A stretch of DNA of 64,000 nt from IMG/VR virus record IMGVR_UViG_3300033429_000001, positions 1 to 64,000 of that record; one strand, given 5' to 3'. The translations under genes were made by a program, and so were the position numbers. Below the pieces are notes generated by a model. It was not told the origin of the DNA, did not search any database, and saw only the letters and a program-made list of their open reading frames with translations. Shown piece by piece: positions 18,791-27,103 of this stretch; within the stretch, counting starts at the first letter, position 1, and every line of letters begins with the position of its first letter. The stretch comes from a virus.

Positions 18791-19441
18791 ATGACCAAGC
18801 CAAAAATCACAATCATCAAGATGGCGGATTTAAAGCCAGACGGTGCCAATGCGAATGAGGGTACTGAACGCGGTCGGGAAGTGCTTAGAGATAGCGTCAG
18901 GGAATTTGGAGTAGCCGAGGCTGGAACACTGGACAAAAACGATAGAATCGTCGGTGGAAATAAGAGATTTGAAGCCTACGGCGAGGCTGGCATGGATGAT
19001 GAGGTTATTGTCATAGAGGTTGATGGCAAGCAGCCAGTCTACATCAAGCGAAATAACATTGACCTGAAGACCCCGGAGGGCAGACGCCTGGCGCATATGC
19101 TGAACCGGTCACATGAGCTTAGTTATACTCTGGACGTAGATCAATTATTTGTAGACATAGATGGCGTTGAGTTGAAAGATTTATGGGGCGAGGATGAGTT
19201 GGCGGGGCTGTTTGGGGCGATTTTGCAAGATGCTGAACCCTCTAAGGGCGGCAGATCGTTGGGTGATAAAAAAAAACAAATAAAGCCCGTCTTGTACGTG
19301 GACGAGGTAAAGATATTCGAGTTGGCAATCAGGGCTACCGGTGAAAAGAACCGGGGGCAGGCACTAATCAAAATATGCGAGGCATATCTTGGGACAGAGG
19401 GACAATTCGACATTGGCCTTGAAAATATCCTTGAGACGTAA
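18791..19441 (+). CDS. ParB/Srx-like N-terminal domain protein
   Basis: DLKPD..NAN..T.RG...L..S..EFG...D...IVGGN.R. Confidence 0.7.
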   Translation: MTKPKITIIKMADLKPDGANANEGTERGREVLRDSVREFGVAEAGTLDKNDRIVGGNKRFEAYGEAGMDDEVIVIEVDGKQPVYIKRNNIDLKTPEGRRLAHMLNRSHELSYTLDVDQLFVDIDGVELKDLWGEDELAGLFGAILQDAEPSKGGRSLGDKKKQIKPVLYVDEVKIFELAIRATGEKNRGQALIKICEAYLGTEGQFDIGLENILET

Positions 19442-21191: not shown

Positions 21192-21590
21192 TTATGATCT
21201 ACATTGTTTACTGACGATGTGGTCGGCCAGGTAATCTCTGGCGGTGTCAATCAACTTGAAGAGGTCAGAGTTTGGCACATCGCCTTCTGAGCATTGGTAC
21301 ATCCATTCTTTGATCTCTTGGTAAGTTTTGATCTGCACAGGAGGCATAACAAATTGGTAATGAAAGTTCAGCGGACGAAATTCTTCGGCTGCCCCTTTAC
21401 CGTATCGCTCGTTAACTGCCATTACGTTCAGTTGGAACATGTCATTTGCTAATCTGGAACAATCTTCATTACGATTCAGATTATATCCTGCGTCCTCTAT
21501 TTCTCTGACAATGTGGGTCAGGTGTTTGGTAGCCTTGAAAAAACTTACAATTCTGTTAATAGTATCGTCATTTACTACATATGAACTCAT
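21192..21590 (-). CDS. Conserved phage-type hypothetical protein
   Basis: Own promoter and RBS; N..AVNERY...YQCSE. Confidence 0.7.
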   Translation of the reverse strand: MSSYVVNDDTINRIVSFFKATKHLTHIVREIEDAGYNLNRNEDCSRLANDMFQLNVMAVNERYGKGAAEEFRPLNFHYQFVMPPVQIKTYQEIKEWMYQCSEGDVPNSDLFKLIDTARDYLADHIVSKQCRS

Positions 21591-21599
21591 CTTTTGTTT

Positions 21600-21712
21600 C
21601 TCCTTAAAAAGTAATATCTAACTGTAAATATTATAACATACTTATGCCGTAAACACAAGTGGAAGTTTCGCTGAATGAAACAAAAACAAACAAAATTTGA
21701 TAATTTTAAGGT
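21600..21712 (-). promoter_or_regulatory. Repeated leftward promoter cassette (TAACCTTAAAATTA box, TTGTGT-17-TATAAT, AAGGAG); second copy 22791-22903
   Basis: ~113-bp near-identical repeat, each copy directly before a gene start. Confidence 0.85.
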
Positions 21713-22587
21713 TAAACGATGTAGGCAAGAGCAGACTTGAGGGCCAGGGCTGCGGCGGTACACTGGTCGCGCTTGAAGTTCTTTCCCAGTGCATTCCAGG
21801 CTTCGGCGGCCTGTTGCCAAAAATTGATTTGATTATTAAGTACTTCGTGAGGCTTATTACCGCTTGTTGGCGGGATAGTTGTTGATGGTAGAGGCGGGTC
21901 TGCTGGAACTTCTGTTGGTTGGTCGTTGACGCTAATTTGACCGCCAAACAACGGGGCGTCAAACAAGGTGGCCTGGGCCTGCTGCTGGAACAATTCGCCG
22001 CAGACTCTACGGAACCATGCCGGGGTAGGGCTGGTGTTGTCTCGAAGCTTGCGGATGGCTAACATTTGGAAGTTGGAGTCAAGGTCGGCTTGGGAAATGA
22101 TTTGAGCGTAGCCTAGACCAATGTCGCCGGTTCTAACTAAGTCTTGAAGGTCATCACGAAGCTTCAGAAGCTTGAGACGAAATTCAACTCTTACGGAACT
22201 GACACCGGCTTGCTTGGAACACTTTTTAGCGTCCCACCCGTAAAGGCTAATCCGGCTGGCGTAAGCGTTGGCCTCGTCGATGGGGTCGAGGTCGTCGCGG
22301 CTGACATTTTCGGTGAGCATAACGGCGCTGGCTTCTTCATCGTTGAGGCTAACGACGATACACGGAACCTCTGACCAGTTCAGGAGTTCAATGGCTCGTG
22401 TACGACGCTCGCCGGCAACTATCTGGTACATTTCCGTGCTGTCTATATGGCGCACGGTAATCGGCTGAATTAGGCCATTCTCGCTGATACTGTTAGCCAG
22501 TTCTTGCAGGGCCTTTGGGTCAAAGCGAGTGCGGTCATTGTTGCCGGGTACTATGAGGGTTGTGTCAATCATTTTGATGTTGGACAT
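21712..22587 (-). CDS. parB: ParB/RepB/Spo0J family protein
   Basis: R..FD...LQELANSI..NGLIQPITVR...YQIVAGERRTRA...EN..R.DL.PIDEA. Confidence 0.9.
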   Translation of the reverse strand: MSNIKMIDTTLIVPGNNDRTRFDPKALQELANSISENGLIQPITVRHIDSTEMYQIVAGERRTRAIELLNWSEVPCIVVSLNDEEASAVMLTENVSRDDLDPIDEANAYASRISLYGWDAKKCSKQAGVSSVRVEFRLKLLKLRDDLQDLVRTGDIGLGYAQIISQADLDSNFQMLAIRKLRDNTSPTPAWFRRVCGELFQQQAQATLFDAPLFGGQISVNDQPTEVPADPPLPSTTIPPTSGNKPHEVLNNQINFWQQAAEAWNALGKNFKRDQCTAAALALKSALAYIV

Positions 22588-22781
22588 TATAATTGCTCAC
22601 TTTTGCCGTTTGACCAGATGGCTTCTTCTCTCTGAAAAACATCGACTGCAAACCAGAAGTTATCTTCTTCTGCTACGTGGTATTCTATGTGACCTTCTTT
22701 GTCGTCACTATAAACGATGAAGTTATCATCTGATTTTAATGATTTTTCTTTTGCTAATTTACTTGCTTTTCCGTAGGTCAT
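22587..22781 (-). CDS. Hypothetical protein
   Basis: AAGGAG RBS from the repeated promoter cassette. Confidence 0.65.
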   Translation of the reverse strand: MTYGKASKLAKEKSLKSDDNFIVYSDDKEGHIEYHVAEEDNFWFAVDVFQREEAIWSNGKSEQL

Positions 22782-22790
22782 AATTTTTGT

Positions 22791-22903
22791 CTCCTTAAAA
22801 AGTAATATCTAACTATGAATAGTATAGCATACTTATGCTGTAAACACAAGTGGAAGTTTCAGTAGGTGAAACAAAAACAAACAAAAATTGATAATTTTAA
22901 GGT
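22791..22903 (-). promoter_or_regulatory. Second copy of the leftward promoter cassette (TTGTGT-17-TATACT)
   Basis: Repeat of 21600-21712. Confidence 0.85.
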
Positions 22904-22928
22904 AAAATACTAAACACAGGAACTGAAC

Positions 22929-23438
22929 ATGGCCAGTAAAGAGGCTCTAATGGAACTGAGGCGGTCTCTGATCGCTGCCCTTCTATCTGCTGACCCGAGA
23001 ATTACGCAACGGCAGATATTGACCGCATTGGAGAGAAAGGGACTATTTAACCCAGATTCGGGGAATCCCTATTCTGTGGGCACCATCAACACGGACATCA
23101 AGGTCATAAAAGTGCAATGGCGCGAGCGGGCAGGGATAGATGCAGAGGGCTGGTTGAGCGAGGTTTTGGCCAAACTTGACGAATTGGAAAAAAAGGGCTG
23201 GACTACGGGAAAGCCTGATTTGGTACTGAAGTGTATTCAGGAGCGCAATAAATTACTGGGATTGTACTCCCCCTCCAGGCAAGAAATCACCGGTGCCGGT
23301 GGCGGCCCGATAAAGACAGAGGATGCAACCCTTACCGACGAAGAGCGAATTAATAGAATTGCAGCCATATTTGACCGGGCAAGAGCTAAACGAGACAGGC
23401 AAGCTGACACACAACAAGAAAAGTTGCCAGGCGAATAA
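22929..23438 (+). CDS. terS: Putative terminase small subunit
   Basis: N-terminal HTH, R.KLLGL..P...EITGAGGGPI tail; upstream of terL. Confidence 0.7.
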   Translation: MASKEALMELRRSLIAALLSADPRITQRQILTALERKGLFNPDSGNPYSVGTINTDIKVIKVQWRERAGIDAEGWLSEVLAKLDELEKKGWTTGKPDLVLKCIQERNKLLGLYSPSRQEITGAGGGPIKTEDATLTDEERINRIAAIFDRARAKRDRQADTQQEKLPGE

Positions 23439-23452
23439 TTGCATGGTATACT
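23424..23452 (+). promoter_or_regulatory. Promoter of the TIGR-Tas cassette, TTGCCA-17-TATACT (extended -10)
   Basis: Near consensus, overlapping the terS stop. Confidence 0.7.
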
Positions 23453-23457
23453 CTCAA

Positions 23458-23538
23458 TGTTCGTGAGTGGTATCAAAATTGTAAAAAACCGTTTTGGGGA
23501 GTGCAGGCCACTCGCGAACACCCAAGGCGGTTTTTTTT
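23458..23538 (+). promoter_or_regulatory. Leader attenuator: terminator hairpin whose loop is complementary to the transcript 5' end
   Basis: AAAAAACCGTTTTGGG/CCCAAGGCGGTTTTTT stem; TGTTCGTGAGTGGT pairs with GCCACTCGCGAACA. Confidence 0.7.
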
Positions 23539-23567
23539 ATTGCGTTGTAGGCGAGGCAGGCGAAGAT

Positions 23568-24191
23568 ATGGAAACAAAAGAAGATATGGCAAAGCAGAGC
23601 AAAATGACGAAGGGAAAAATTACCATTGACGTGCGTGACTGGCAAAAAGAATTTGCCGAGATAGAGCCGGATTTAACCGGCGATGACCCGATAATTGACC
23701 TTGCCCTGACAGGATTAAAACCACAGCAAGCGGGCAGGATGATAACCATCGCCGGAGAGCGTGGTGATTTAAAAGACTTTCCGGGTTCAAAGCTTTTGCT
23801 GATGGTCGGGGGAGCTAATTTCTTTAGTAGTCACGTGGCGCGGGCCAAGCGAGAAATTACGCTGAAGAACGGCAAGACCTTTAGCGGTCGGGCCTACATC
23901 GCCCCGGCTCGTGAGGTGGCGGGAGAGGATGAGGAGGATCAGTCTGATAATGATACCCATCTACAACATGCTGCCTCATCCCTTCCTGCCTCAAATTGGC
24001 TTGATGAGAAAGTAGTCAGCACAATCGACCCGGCTACTTTTGACCGGGCCGTCAGGTATCTTTTCAACCAAGTGACGGGTAATATCTGGAAGCGTTTTTT
24101 ACACATTGCCGAACACAAGCCGGGTGAAGTGGAACGGATAGCCGGCGAGTTGAAAGATAGGATAGATGAGATGGTAGAGCGGTTGAGTTAG
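23568..24191 (+). CDS. Hypothetical protein in the TIGR-Tas cassette; contains one array unit
   Basis: ORF between leader and array; the ORF-track start 23439 falls in the promoter. Confidence 0.75.
   Translation: METKEDMAKQSKMTKGKITIDVRDWQKEFAEIEPDLTGDDPIIDLALTGLKPQQAGRMITIAGERGDLKDFPGSKLLLMVGGANFFSSHVARAKREITLKNGKTFSGRAYIAPAREVAGEDEEDQSDNDTHLQHAASSLPASNWLDEKVVSTIDPATFDRAVRYLFNQVTGNIWKRFLHIAEHKPGEVERIAGELKDRIDEMVERLS
23918..23990 (+). ncRNA. Orphan TIGR-type unit inside a CDS
   Basis: stem-TCA-gtctgataa-TGATACCCA-tctacaaca-TG-stem. Confidence 0.75.
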
Positions 24192-24700
24192 CCAGCCGGC
24201 GCGTAATACCCAAGCATCTTGTGCTACCAATCGCAACCGGTGGGGCGGCCACATGCCGCGTGATACCCAAACTTCATGTGCCGCCCCACCTTAAAAGCTT
24301 ACTGAGGGCCAAATCCTAAGTGATGCCCAGTCCAACGGTGCCCTTGACAAAATCCGAGGTTGAGCCAGGTTGAACGTGATACCCACGATAATTGTGTTCA
24401 ACCCCGGCTTTTGGAGAGAAGCCAGTAGCATAGTGATACCCATGAAACGTGTGCTTCTCTCCCAAATCAAGGCAATTGGTCTTGACCAGATTAGCGGTGA
24501 TACCCACCTAGACAGTGAAAGGACAAAAATAATGAACCAAAGTGAATGTGATACCCAGAATCAATGTGTTCAAATTGAAGGCAACAACGGAGAGGGCCAG
24601 GAATCCTGTGATACCCAGTTAATGGACGTCCCCTCCGACGATAACGGGACGGGCGTCCATAAAAGTCATGATACCCACTCCCCATGTGACACCCGTCCCG
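24180..24700 (+). repeat. TIGR-type stem-loop guide RNA array, 9 tandem units (stem-CCA-N9-TGATACCCA-N9-TG-stem)
   Basis: CCA at 24192, 24249, 24309, 24365, 24422, 24486, 24537, 24597, 24657; both spacers always 9 nt; each unit has its own inverted repeat. Confidence 0.9.
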
Positions 24701-25461
24701 ACCCAAAGCCCCGCAAGCATCCCCACCTATGGCAAGCCTATCTATGGTGGTACGAGTTGATGGAAATGCGCAAGCGTCACAACTCGCGTATTTCCTCAAT
24801 CGAAAATGGCAAGAGCAATCTTGACGCGGGATTTGAACGGGAAATGATAGCGATGCTTCAGCTTGACATCCTGGTTGACCCGAAGAATAAGACCCAGCGA
24901 GCTATGTCTGCCAAGCAGATAATGGTGAATTATGGCGAGGCTGTTGGGCCAATATGGGACTGGTGTTTGGCCCATAAGGGAATGGGGGAAAGCCTGACTG
25001 CCCAACTATTGGCCCAGATAGACGACATCAACAATTCCCCATCGGTGTCCAGTCTGTGGAGGTTTGCCGGGTTCAGTATTGACGGGGGGAAGGCAGAGAA
25101 AAATCATAAAGGGGTCAAGTCGCCCTTTAACCACAAACTCAAGGGTATCTGTTTCAATATTGCCGATCAATTCATCCGGCAGCAAACGCCGTACTATGTC
25201 GATATTTATTATGCCGAGAAACAACGCCAGCGAGAATTATATCCCGAACCAGTTTGTCGGGGCTGTGGAGAGTTGGCAGTACAGAAACGGAAAAAGGTTA
25301 GAGGCAAAATGGTGATGACCTGGGGCTGTCCCGAGAATGGCAAGCACGTTGTAAATTATACCGATGCCCACCTGCATATTAGAGGGTGGCGTAAGATGAT
25401 AAAGGAATTTCTTAAGGACTTGTGGGTAGCGTGGCGCAGGATTGAGGGTCAGATAGAATGA
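24532..25461 (+). CDS. tasA: TasA-like protein: coiled coil plus IS110 C-terminal/Nop RNA-binding domain, no nuclease domain, zinc-ribbon insertion
   Basis: PIWDW...KGMG..L.AQLLA.I.DI.....SSLWRFAG...N..LK...H.H.R..RKMIK.FL.DLW..WR; no DEDD RuvC or HNH; GAAAGGA RBS; adjacent array. Confidence 0.82.
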   Translation: MNQSECDTQNQCVQIEGNNGEGQESCDTQLMDVPSDDNGTGVHKSHDTHSPCDTRPDPKPRKHPHLWQAYLWWYELMEMRKRHNSRISSIENGKSNLDAGFEREMIAMLQLDILVDPKNKTQRAMSAKQIMVNYGEAVGPIWDWCLAHKGMGESLTAQLLAQIDDINNSPSVSSLWRFAGFSIDGGKAEKNHKGVKSPFNHKLKGICFNIADQFIRQQTPYYVDIYYAEKQRQRELYPEPVCRGCGELAVQKRKKVRGKMVMTWGCPENGKHVVNYTDAHLHIRGWRKMIKEFLKDLWVAWRRIEGQIE

Positions 25462-25485
25462 GATAAACACAGCAACGCAAACCCA

Positions 25486-25514
25486 AGAGGGCCAGAGTTA
25501 TCTGACCCTCTTTT
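25486..25514 (+). terminator. Intrinsic terminator closing the TIGR-Tas cassette
   Basis: AAGAGGGCCAGA/TCTGACCCTCTT plus T tract. Confidence 0.7.
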
Positions 25515-25517
25515 ATT

Positions 25518-25546
25518 TTGACGCCAGCCAATCAATATGATAAAGT
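25518..25546 (+). promoter_or_regulatory. Promoter for terL, TTGACG-17-TAAAGT, near-leaderless
   Basis: ATG 9 nt after -10; no SD. Confidence 0.55.
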
Positions 25547-25555
25547 ATCATTAGC

Positions 25556-27103
25556 ATGCAAATACCGACGAAGAGCGAATTGATAGAGTTGCAGCCGTAT
25601 CTGACGAAATCGCAACTGGAAGAAATAGACAAACTGGCGAATGAGATCGAGATACCGCTTTGGTATCCCAATCCTGACCACGAAGACGGCTCCCCGAATC
25701 CTCAGCGATTGGCCTATGAGAGCGAGGCTGACATCTTGGGGTATGGCGGTTCGGCGGGATCGGGCAAAACGGACCTACTCCTCGGCGTCGCTGCCACCCA
25801 GCAAACCAACTCCGTAATCTTCCGCCGCGTCTTTCCCAATCATCGAGGAAACATTGAGCGCAGCCGAGAGATATTTAACCCCACCGGTGTCCCTCATGGC
25901 AAAAACAGCTTCAATGAACAGTTTCACCGTTGGAAATTAGCAAGCGGTAAACAAGTAGAATTCGAAGCCTGCCAACACGAAAAGGACAAAAACAACCAAC
26001 GCGGACGCCCCCGAGATTTCTATGGCTTTGATGAGGCCACCGAATTCACCCGCTCTCAATTTGATTTTATCATCGGCTGGAATCGCTCGACAGACCCCAA
26101 CCAACGATGTCGAATCATTCTTACTTTTAATCCCCCCACCGACGAGGTCGGCTCCTGGGTGGTGGATTTCTTTTTACCCTGGATTTCCTACCTTTTCCCC
26201 AAAGACTTTGAGCATCCCCGCCCGGCCAGGCCGGGGGAGTTGCGATGGTATGCCACCGTCGAGGGACAAGAGACCGAATGCACAGACGGAACCCCATTTG
26301 AGCGTGATGGGCTTCTCGTCAAGCCCCTTAGCCGGACTTTCATCCCAGGCAAACTCAAAGACAATCCACATTTGATAAATACCAATTATGAGGCTATCCT
26401 TCAGTCACTGCCCGAGCCGCTACGTAGCCAGGTGCTACACGGCGATTTTGCGGCAGCCAAAGAGCGCGACCCCTGGCAGGTGATTCCCGTCGAATGGGTC
26501 AAGCTGGCTCAAAAGCGGTGGCTGGAAATGGAGAGGCCGGCGGTGCCTATTTCCGGTACGGGGGTTGATGTGGCCCGAGGAGGCCAGGACAAGACAACAA
26601 AATGCGATAGGTACGACAATTATTTTGATGAGGTCAAGGTATGGCCTGGGGTGGCCACCCCAGACGGTCCGACGGTGGCCGCGTTGGTCGAGGGCGAATT
26701 GGAGGGCGAACCTGCCTACATCAACATTGATGTAATCGGCGTTGGGTCGTCTGCCTATGACAGCTTGAAGCCAATGTATAAGCGGGTCAACCCGATCAAT
26801 GCCGGGGAGAGGTCAGACTACCGGGACCGCTCTGGCAAATACAAAATGAGGAATGTTCGGGCGGAATATTACTGGCGGATGCGGGAGGCGTTGGACCCGG
26901 ATCACGGGGAAGACCCGGCGCTGCCACCGGGTAACGAGGTGGTAGCAGATTTGTGTTCGGCTCGGTATAAGGTGACGACAGCGGGGATACAGATTGAGAG
27001 CAAGGAGGAGATTAAGGAGCGGATAGGCCGGAGTCCTGATGTTGGGGAGGCTATTTTGCTGGCGAATTATCCGGGGGAGCCGCAGGGGATATTCTTTGGA
27101 TAA
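25556..27103 (+). CDS. terL: Terminase large subunit
   Basis: YGGSAGSGKT Walker A, FDEATEF Walker B, TFNPP, GVDVARGGQD nuclease motif, RSPD.G.A. Confidence 0.95.
   Translation: MQIPTKSELIELQPYLTKSQLEEIDKLANEIEIPLWYPNPDHEDGSPNPQRLAYESEADILGYGGSAGSGKTDLLLGVAATQQTNSVIFRRVFPNHRGNIERSREIFNPTGVPHGKNSFNEQFHRWKLASGKQVEFEACQHEKDKNNQRGRPRDFYGFDEATEFTRSQFDFIIGWNRSTDPNQRCRIILTFNPPTDEVGSWVVDFFLPWISYLFPKDFEHPRPARPGELRWYATVEGQETECTDGTPFERDGLLVKPLSRTFIPGKLKDNPHLINTNYEAILQSLPEPLRSQVLHGDFAAAKERDPWQVIPVEWVKLAQKRWLEMERPAVPISGTGVDVARGGQDKTTKCDRYDNYFDEVKVWPGVATPDGPTVAALVEGELEGEPAYINIDVIGVGSSAYDSLKPMYKRVNPINAGERSDYRDRSGKYKMRNVRAEYYWRMREALDPDHGEDPALPPGNEVVADLCSARYKVTTAGIQIESKEEIKERIGRSPDVGEAILLANYPGEPQGIFFG

Follow-up and report, generated by a model that had tools for sequence, protein, structure and literature searches.

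The 64,000-nt window analysed here, taken from a virus record 72.7 kb long (positions 1 to 64,000 of IMG/VR record IMGVR_UViG_3300033429_000001), carries on its plus strand an open reading frame (ORF) at 23568-24191, hereafter the companion, which is followed by a stem-loop TIGR array and by tasA, the gene of a nuclease-free Tas protein. The companion is almost certainly a real gene and a companion of Tas, and a stretch within its coding sequence (23918-23990) is very probably a selected guide-like RNA element. The overall reading to which we incline, with modest confidence, is that the ORF encodes a companion of one phage TIGR-TasA clade, that the DNA of its linker doubles as a tenth guide-like unit beside the nine of the array, and that the processing of this unit provides a feedback.

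Linkage of the companion to the array and tasA

The neighbourhood of the companion was surveyed from both sides. Scans with the companion family recovered 15 distinct contigs besides the window, 11 of which have enough downstream DNA (L030 was not evaluable); in 10 of these 11, the companion is followed immediately, on the same strand, by an array and tasA (L001, L004, L005, L009, L010, L012, L013, L014, L016, and L023). L022, a locus retrieved by the TasA scan, likewise has the companion upstream of tasA on the same strand, so that a total of 11 other contigs carry the trio. In L006, L007, and L008 the contig ends before tas, and array units begin at the companion stop codon. The reverse scan, performed with a TasA alignment, yielded 10 contigs, of which nine were evaluable, and the companion stands directly upstream of tasA in six of the nine. 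The sequence-only reading had taken the ORF for a partner of a nuclease-less Tas and had proposed a gene-neighbourhood survey of its homologues; now that the survey has been run, the homologues are in most cases linked to tas loci and the partnership is supported. Furthermore, since the companion stop codon and the first array unit adjoin without a gap, co-regulation of the companion with the array is plausible.

The stem-loop TIGR array consists of nine tandem units (24185-24700, + strand), delimited from the repeats and by a covariance model, with loop cores at 24203, 24260, 24320, 24376, 24433, 24497, 24548, 24608, and 24668. The layout of a tandem unit is CCA + 8 + GTGATACCCA + 8 + GTG, or CCA + 8 + GUGAUACCCA + 8 + GUG at the RNA level; allowing at most one mismatch, the loop core occurs 12 times on both strands of the window, and 10 of these occurrences fall within 23950-24677. 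The covariance model was built from 24 canonical tandem units of seven sources (the window and six related loci) and recovers all nine array units, eight of them with E <= 2e-4 and the ninth with E 0.19. Among the 24 units the stems are 84.4% paired, and seven of the eight pairs show compensatory changes. The first unit (24185-24230) scores 32.7 bits (E 1.8e-5); its stem is TAGC/GCTA, and the companion stop codon, TAG at 24189-24191, supplies three of the four nucleotides of the 5' arm, in agreement with the earlier remark that the stop codon lies in the stem of this unit. A comparison of 23300-24800 with Rfam gave no match at E <= 1.

The gene tasA (24534-25461, + strand), coding for a protein with a Nop-type domain, matches phrog_4285 (E 6.5e-35) and likely starts at ATG 24534, behind the Shine-Dalgarno-like AAAGGA and about 340 nt downstream of the companion. 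TasA has 254 homologues, some of them with PF02371, and its profile matches the solved Tas structures 9mty_A (9.3e-35) and TasH (5.2e-11). Its conserved core of about 250 amino acids (aa) runs from ...RPDPKPRK (about 24694). No Pfam domain was found in TasA at E <= 0.01, and no HNH or RuvC nuclease domain. Moreover, the TasA of the closest relative, L001, appears in Table S1 of Faure et al. (2025; PMC12045711). Because of the phrog_4285 and Tas-structure matches, the lack of a nuclease domain and the presence of the L001 protein in that table, the neighbouring gene is assigned as a nuclease-free TasA accompanied by a TIGR array of the stem-loop type, which confirms the nuclease-less Tas assumed earlier.

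The last three array units lie within the tasA reading frame (24534-24700), with ATG 24534 inside the 5' arm of a unit, and tasA thus seems to start inside the array. The variable N-terminal extension of TasA would correspond to translated units, three in the window and five in L001 (4734-4960), and is also seen in L005, L012, and L013. TasA owes its conserved (A/T)RPDP to the 3' arm of the last unit, and the unit spacings from 24497 onward (51, 60, and 60) are multiples of three. A separate feature of the window TasA is a Cys-rich insertion at about 25250-25350 (CRGC ... GC), with the look of a small zinc ribbon, which is shared by L013 and in part by L001 and L009, and is absent in other relatives.

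As for the companion itself, the ORF extends from ATG 23568 to TAG 24189-24191 and encodes 207 aa, so that the ORF reported between leader and array is indeed present in the sequence. A longer version with a TTG start covers 23439-24191, and the in-frame ATGs at 23586 and 23604 are equally possible starts, most homologues aligning from residues 13-18. An exhaustive HMMER search defined a family of 200 clusters at E <= 1e-3 (86 at <= 1e-10), with members of 156-232 aa that align over their full length; the family is mostly viral, and the matches from a protein atlas, at 0.91, were all viral clusters without a name. In a word-indexed homology search the companion matched itself alone, the scan of viral contigs with the single protein and the DNA scan of a phage GenBank collection gave no matches, and a genome-contig scan using the companion-family alignment found no relative. 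The search patterns were taken from the smaller alignments, the two larger ones being too diverse.

In a 54-member alignment the N- and C-terminal parts of the companion are conserved and the acidic middle is variable, the linker being the most variable part of the protein; conserved columns are D24, W25, E33, K75, G102, R108, Y164, L165, G171, R176, and L206. The AlphaFold2 (AF2) model, computed with the family alignment as input (pLDDT 88.4, pTM 0.73), comprises an N-terminal alpha/beta domain (residues ~11-110), a disordered acidic linker predicted with low confidence (residues ~112-150) and, in the monomer, a C-terminal helical hairpin (residues 156-206). The net charge of the linker is negative in each of the 54 members, that of the two terminal parts averages slightly below zero, and the whole protein, about 180-210 aa long in the family, is acidic, with a net negative charge on average.

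None of these features could be traced to a known domain. Pfam gave no informative match among the 54 members, even at E <= 1, and PHROGs gave none for the companion. Foldseek found no match in the PDB at E <= 1e-3 and none in BFVD. With VIA-align, the best score of the whole model (Z 4.7) is confined to the C-terminal hairpin, and the model of the N-terminal domain alone (pLDDT 72.7) reaches Z 3.8, with scattered weak helix-turn-helix-like rows. The predicted fold, therefore, cannot be named from the fold searches, which does not in itself demonstrate that it is novel. The best match of a PDB sequence-profile search, an RNase III/L3 entry at E 0.0085, sits on the acidic linker and was judged compositional. 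The suggestion that the companion may be an effector finds nothing in its favour: the protein is acidic, and these searches revealed neither a catalytic motif nor a known domain, nor a fold to which it could be matched.

A guide-like unit inside the companion gene

The embedded unit (23918-23990, + strand) was delimited from its inverted repeat, its fold, the covariance model and its relatives. The arms of the distal stem (23918-23934 and 23974-23990) are 17 nt long, 82% complementary and 39 nt apart. Between them are found UCA (23939-23941), spacer A (23942-23949), the core AUGAUACCCA (23950-23959), spacer B (23960-23967) and AUG (23968-23970). In DNA letters, the unit reads TCA + 8 nt + ATGATACCCA + 8 nt + ATG, which is the register of the nine tandem units, and in its structure a canonical 30-nt interior is closed by 4 bp of proximal stem and, beyond a one-base bulge, by 17 bp of distal stem. 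The hairpin has a folding energy of -33.3 kcal/mol (z = -3.26), and one in 200 shuffles folds as well. The window copy, which has the edges UCA ... AUG, retains eight of the nine invariant and all three near-invariant unit positions. At the protein level, the unit is translated as ...AGEDEEDQSDNDTHLQHAASSLPA... / GEDEEDQSDNDTHLQHAASSLPA and codes for residues ~117-141 without breaking the frame; pLDDT is about 50 for residues 121-140, and the translation agrees with the disordered acidic region of the AF2 model, in keeping with the acidic linker described by the sequence-only reading.

It is the evidence from relatives, and not the score of the window copy, that makes the embedded unit more than a chance resemblance. 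An orthologous unit occupies the same linker site in all five stem-loop loci with a full ORF (the window, L001, L005, L007, and L008), and it is absent in all eight dual-repeat loci (L004, L006, L009, L010, L014, L016, L022, and L023). Searched with the tandem-unit model over 42 kb, the embedded units of L005, L001, and L008 are found at E 3.6e-6, 0.01, and 0.029, respectively. In the alignment of the five sequences, 91.4% of the cells of a 21-pair stem are paired, as opposed to 45-62% when the partner is slid by 1-3 columns; 11 of the 21 pairs have changed on both sides, and none of 500 column shuffles reaches the observed values. The spacers vary between phages, and what is kept is CCA, the UGAUACCC core and (A/G)UG. 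L001, L005, L007, and L008 have the edges CCA ... (A/G)UG, and the general form of the interior is CCA or UCA, 8 nt, (A/G)UGAUACCC, 8 nt, (A/G)UG. Since compensatory changes keep the stem intact, selection appears to act on the structure of the RNA (or of the single strand), beyond the protein.

From this, a mechanism can be outlined. The companion mRNA would probably be part of the pre-tigRNA, the whole cassette being transcribed as one pre-tigRNA/mRNA. TasA would probably bind the embedded unit, and the RNases of the cell would trim it out like the other units. Such an excision would cut the companion mRNA in two, so that companion synthesis would be tied to TasA and to processing in a negative feedback; the three units in the 5' end of tasA would obey the same logic, their excision cutting the tasA message. 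The extra-long stem might let the unit refold behind the ribosomes or might offer an RNase III-type entry site. Finally, the acidic and possibly dimeric companion would modulate or chaperone the basic TasA ribonucleoprotein rather than work as an enzyme, the role of modulator being the more likely one because the protein is acidic over its whole length, catalytic motifs are missing from it, and its terminal hairpin might allow dimerisation. These steps do not deserve the same confidence. The loading of the embedded unit as a guide has an even chance of being real, and the feedback coupling of companion synthesis to guide processing is put forward tentatively, as is the control by guide processing that the sequence-only reading had suggested; the same degree of doubt attaches to the companion as a TasA-binding modulator. 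A still more specific proposal is rather unlikely: a fold-orphan, non-ParB accessory whose transcript yields either the companion or, upon excision by TasA and RNases, a guide, and which tunes the engagement of TasA with DNA. If true, protein code and guide-RNA code would overlap in a circuit that regulates itself on two layers.

Several observations weigh against a tenth guide-like unit with processing feedback. With the tandem-unit model, the window copy reaches 13.5 bits (E 0.82), which is the best match outside the array in the 64 kb and is not significant alone; this qualifies the 'complete unit' of the sequence-only reading. The low score is due to the long stem being set back by the 4-bp proximal stem and the bulge, to the U-G closing and to two proximal mismatches. 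In fact, the window copy carries UCA in place of CCA, its closing C-G has become U-G and two of its proximal pairs are mismatched; being the most degraded of the five, and with such an E value, it may be decaying in this phage. L007 gives E 1.1 with the same model. Furthermore, the five embedded-unit sequences represent two well-supported clades, so that the independent comparisons are few, and the 21-pair structure was derived from the same five sequences, which favours high pairing.

The lost closing pair, the E values of the window and of L007, and the presence of the unit in two clades only would all suit a fossil, that is, an array unit captured or expanded in a permissive linker and now a neutral passenger without functional RNA. 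Acidic linkers are, moreover, ancestral in the family, also where the unit is absent, and on this account the hairpin persists through acidic (purine-rich) and Ser/Pro/Leu (pyrimidine-rich) codons that happen to pair. Such an origin in neutral drift is hard to reconcile with a stem in which 11 of 21 pairs have changed on both sides at 91.4% pairing, with the fall to 45-62% on sliding by 1-3 columns, and with the retention of the 10+10+10 register and of nearly all invariant positions between proteins only 33-45% identical, in what is, this unit apart, the region of the companion that varies most. The fossil is, therefore, considered unlikely.

Two further points against the favoured reading concern the guide sequences. 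In the L001 clade the embedded core is GAUACCC or GACACCC, compared with GUUACCC in the array; a guide used together with the array might be expected to follow it, and the embedded unit does not. In addition, when the spacer pairs of the 10 units were compared with the 72.7 kb of the phage itself at up to one mismatch, none was matched except by unit 24376 itself, and no self-regulatory target is thus evident; at two mismatches five places were found, about the chance expectation. An embedded core that, in the L001 clade, fails to change along with the array core, a stem of 17 + 4 bp, far longer than the 4-13 bp of the tandem units, and a position exactly between two folded domains could also be expected of a TasA-independent mRNA element, in which the 21-bp bulged hairpin is cleaved by RNase III, stabilises the message or makes the ribosome pause, and owes its guide likeness to its origin. 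Yet an element of this kind would have no need of the unpaired interior, which keeps CCA, the UGAUACCC core and (A/G)UG in register, and the restriction of the unit to loci with stem-loop arrays (5/5 vs 0/8) also argues against it; we regard it as improbable.

The neighbourhood contributes two more adverse points. L027 is the exception among the companion loci, since neither an array nor tasA is present in the 628 nt left downstream of the homologue. In this contig (3001-4161) the C-terminal helix of the companion continues without a stop into an unrelated hydrolase-like stretch and two hydrophobic segments, as would be seen in either a rearranged locus or a chimeric contig. The other three of the nine evaluable tasA loci, L020, L024, and L025, have no companion upstream or elsewhere in their incomplete records, and the companion would, therefore, be dispensable for some relatives. 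With six of nine tasA loci having the companion and three lacking it, the companion is the usual, not the obligatory, partner of this TasA clade.

The last adverse point lies upstream of the companion. A promoter-like site (TTGCCA, 17 nt, TG-n-TATACT; 23424-23452, + strand) is located just inside the cassette; as a consensus match only, it agrees with 10 of 12 consensus positions, has an extended -10 and is the best match in 22700-25700. Between this sole good promoter-like site and the companion ORF stands a terminator-like hairpin. This long inverted repeat followed by a T-run (23483-23544, + strand), terminator-like or attenuator-like in appearance, is the 'leader' mentioned above; it has 16 bp, an A-run before and a T-run after, in the shape of a bidirectional terminator, and lies within about 90 nt of the promoter-like site. 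The fold of 23453-23570 has an energy of -36.7 kcal/mol (z -2.46). The leader hairpin could be an attenuator, or else the promoter match could be spurious. Among the relatives, the upstream 'leader' region is neither alignable nor conserved. A complementarity of 74% between 23457-23475 and the core plus spacer B of the embedded unit was judged to be chance.

Comparison with published TIGR-Tas systems

In a recent preprint, guides placed inside the tas coding sequence, in disordered regions, are reported for BlTasA, where they were seen by small-RNA-seq, and for others, and TasA is described as an RNA-guided repressor (Xu et al., 2026; 10.64898/2026.09.09.750476). The embedded unit of the companion resembles these intragenic tigRNAs in being in frame, in lying in a disordered region between folded elements and in accompanying a stem-loop array, and the 5' end of tasA in the window displays the same nested pattern. 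Unlike the intragenic tigRNAs of Xu et al. (2026), the host gene is here the upstream companion and not tas. Moreover, the stem of the embedded unit is much longer than those of its tandem siblings and is bulged, and the unit is known from sequence alone, whereas small-RNA-seq was available in the published case. In the published texts searched, no guide nested in a gene other than tas was found. The words 'ParB' and 'accessory' are absent from the text of the preprint by Xu et al. (2026), and no partner protein is described in the available literature passages joining tigRNA, TasA and accessory.

A partner of TasA has nevertheless been named. Within the literature searched, the name 'TasParB' is found in Faure et al. 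(2025) alone, and the companion may be this already reported protein, although we consider the identity slightly less probable than the alternative. According to the methods of that paper (PMC12045711), TasParB is the gene most commonly operonised with tasA, with 10-nt dual repeats upstream and downstream, sometimes in between, and with a C-terminal dimerisation region. Likewise, the companion is an operonic partner of a nuclease-free TasA with a possibly dimerising C-terminus, the helical hairpin of the AF2 model; its dual-repeat relatives agree strikingly with the published description of the locus, as they have the 10-nt repeats GTGCGAGCCA and GTGAAACCCA between companion and tasA, and extra units are present upstream in L004, L009, and L023 and downstream of tasA in L004, L010, L022, and L023. 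What would separate the two is the ParB signal, as the companion has no similarity to ParB/Srx or to the ParB helix-turn-helix domain that could be detected with Pfam hidden Markov models, by profile-profile comparison or by fold search. In detail, 0 of 54 members match PF02195 or PF17762, even at E <= 1; hhalign gives a probability of 0.12% for the family profile against an 18-sequence ParB profile; and the best match to the structure of a ParB DNA-binding domain (Z 2.7) stands among many weak helix-turn-helix-like rows. Moreover, neither the name TasParB nor any of four motifs of the companion family occurs in those supplements of Faure et al. (2025) that could be read. Were the companion to be TasParB, the partner would be known by name, its assignment to ParB would deserve a second look, and the novelty would consist of the embedded unit and the missing ParB signal.

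Stem-loop arrays associated with TasA are already known, as stated in two studies (Faure et al., 2025; Guan et al., 2026, 10.64898/2026.08.11.744272). In common with the PlTasA-type arrays described there, those of the companion clade have two short spacers flanking a conserved centre, box motifs at the edges and a variable palindromic stem, and in both the PlTasA-type systems and the window the effector is a nuclease-free TasA dimer. In contrast to the PlTasA-type arrays, a true 10-nt loop repeat is retained in the companion clade, and among its close relatives are some with dual repeats, in which the GTG...CCA edge is intact. Because of these two features, the arrays of the companion clade look like the 'intermediate' form mentioned by Faure et al. 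(2025).

The dual-repeat arrays (L004, L006, L009, L010, L014, L016, L022, and L023) have the edge GTGCGAGCCA, the loop GTGAAACCCA, 8-nt spacers and a 36-nt period. In the stem-loop arrays (the window, L001, L005, L007, L008, L012, and L013), a variable stem divides the edge repeat into ...GUG and CCA.... The clade thus looks like a transition, at close range, between the two published array types. An annotation trap should be mentioned: in L020 (3815-4594, minus strand), a 259-aa 'ORF' with GSH...GFH repeats is the reverse translation of the dual-repeat array downstream of tasA.

TIGR-Tas is described as a one-protein system, and guide maturation, the role of nuclease-free TasA in phages and the existence of helper proteins are among the questions stated in the discussions of two publications (Faure et al., 2025; Xu et al., 2026). 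With at least 200 clusters, no domain that could be recognised and a position immediately upstream of the array, the companion family represents a concrete candidate for an auxiliary factor. In one branch of this family, the companion codons and a selected guide-like hairpin share the same DNA, which offers a natural case for testing whether guide maturation and translation are coupled. The cassette, about 2.2 kb long, is small enough for direct expression and assay, and the occurrence of dual-repeat and stem-loop arrays in one clade is useful for studying the conversion of array types.

The cassette, its insertion site and its surroundings

The order of genes on the plus strand is terS-like gene (22929-23438), long hairpin, companion, nine tandem units, tasA, and terL (25556-27103, with ATG at 25556), the last matching phrog_979 at E 1.2e-42. 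The companion, the nine stem-loop units and tasA thus form a same-strand cassette between the terS-like gene and terL, and this cassette is bracketed by a 43-nt direct repeat whose copies are 91% identical and 2230 bp apart. The left copy (23333-23375, + strand) falls in the 3' part of the terS-like gene and marks the left edge of the cassette; the right copy (25563-25605, + strand) falls in the 5' part of terL. Translated in the terL frame, the region of the left repeat (23322-23410) gives MQPLPTKSELIELQPYLT..., which resembles the true start of terL, MQIPTKSELIELQPYLT... (25556-25640). The flanking duplication indicates that the 5' end of terL was duplicated upon entry of the cassette into the terminase region, and that companion, array and tasA would have arrived together.

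The trio occupies three different contexts, being flanked by the terS-like gene and terL in the window, by RecT-like and primase genes in L001, and by head-tail adaptor and Neck1 genes in L004, and is best interpreted as moving as a cassette. From its place between the terS-like gene and terL, the companion might be taken for an ordinary phage gene, such as a packaging helper, that adjoins the array by accident. That the trio is met again next to replication genes, next to head-tail genes and in 11 further contigs, together with the duplication that points to its insertion as a whole, makes this very improbable.

Downstream of tasA, a terminator-like hairpin (AAGAGGGCCAGA/TCTGACCCTCTT) with a T-rich tail was read from the sequence at 25485-25519 (+ strand); the consensus scan of 22700-25700 did not list it. 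A canonical ParB (PF02195 + PF17762) is encoded 1 kb upstream of the cassette, on the minus strand (21712-22587), and a second ParB-like gene is present at 18791-19441. For the former, tblastn finds no counterpart in the related loci, and the latter has a relative in L024 only among them; neither is a conserved neighbour of tasA. Finally, a 130-nt direct repeat (21587-21716 and 22778-22907, 88% identical) is found in intergenic positions upstream of the minus-strand genes 21192-21590 and 22587-22781 and is probably a duplicated promoter or operator region.

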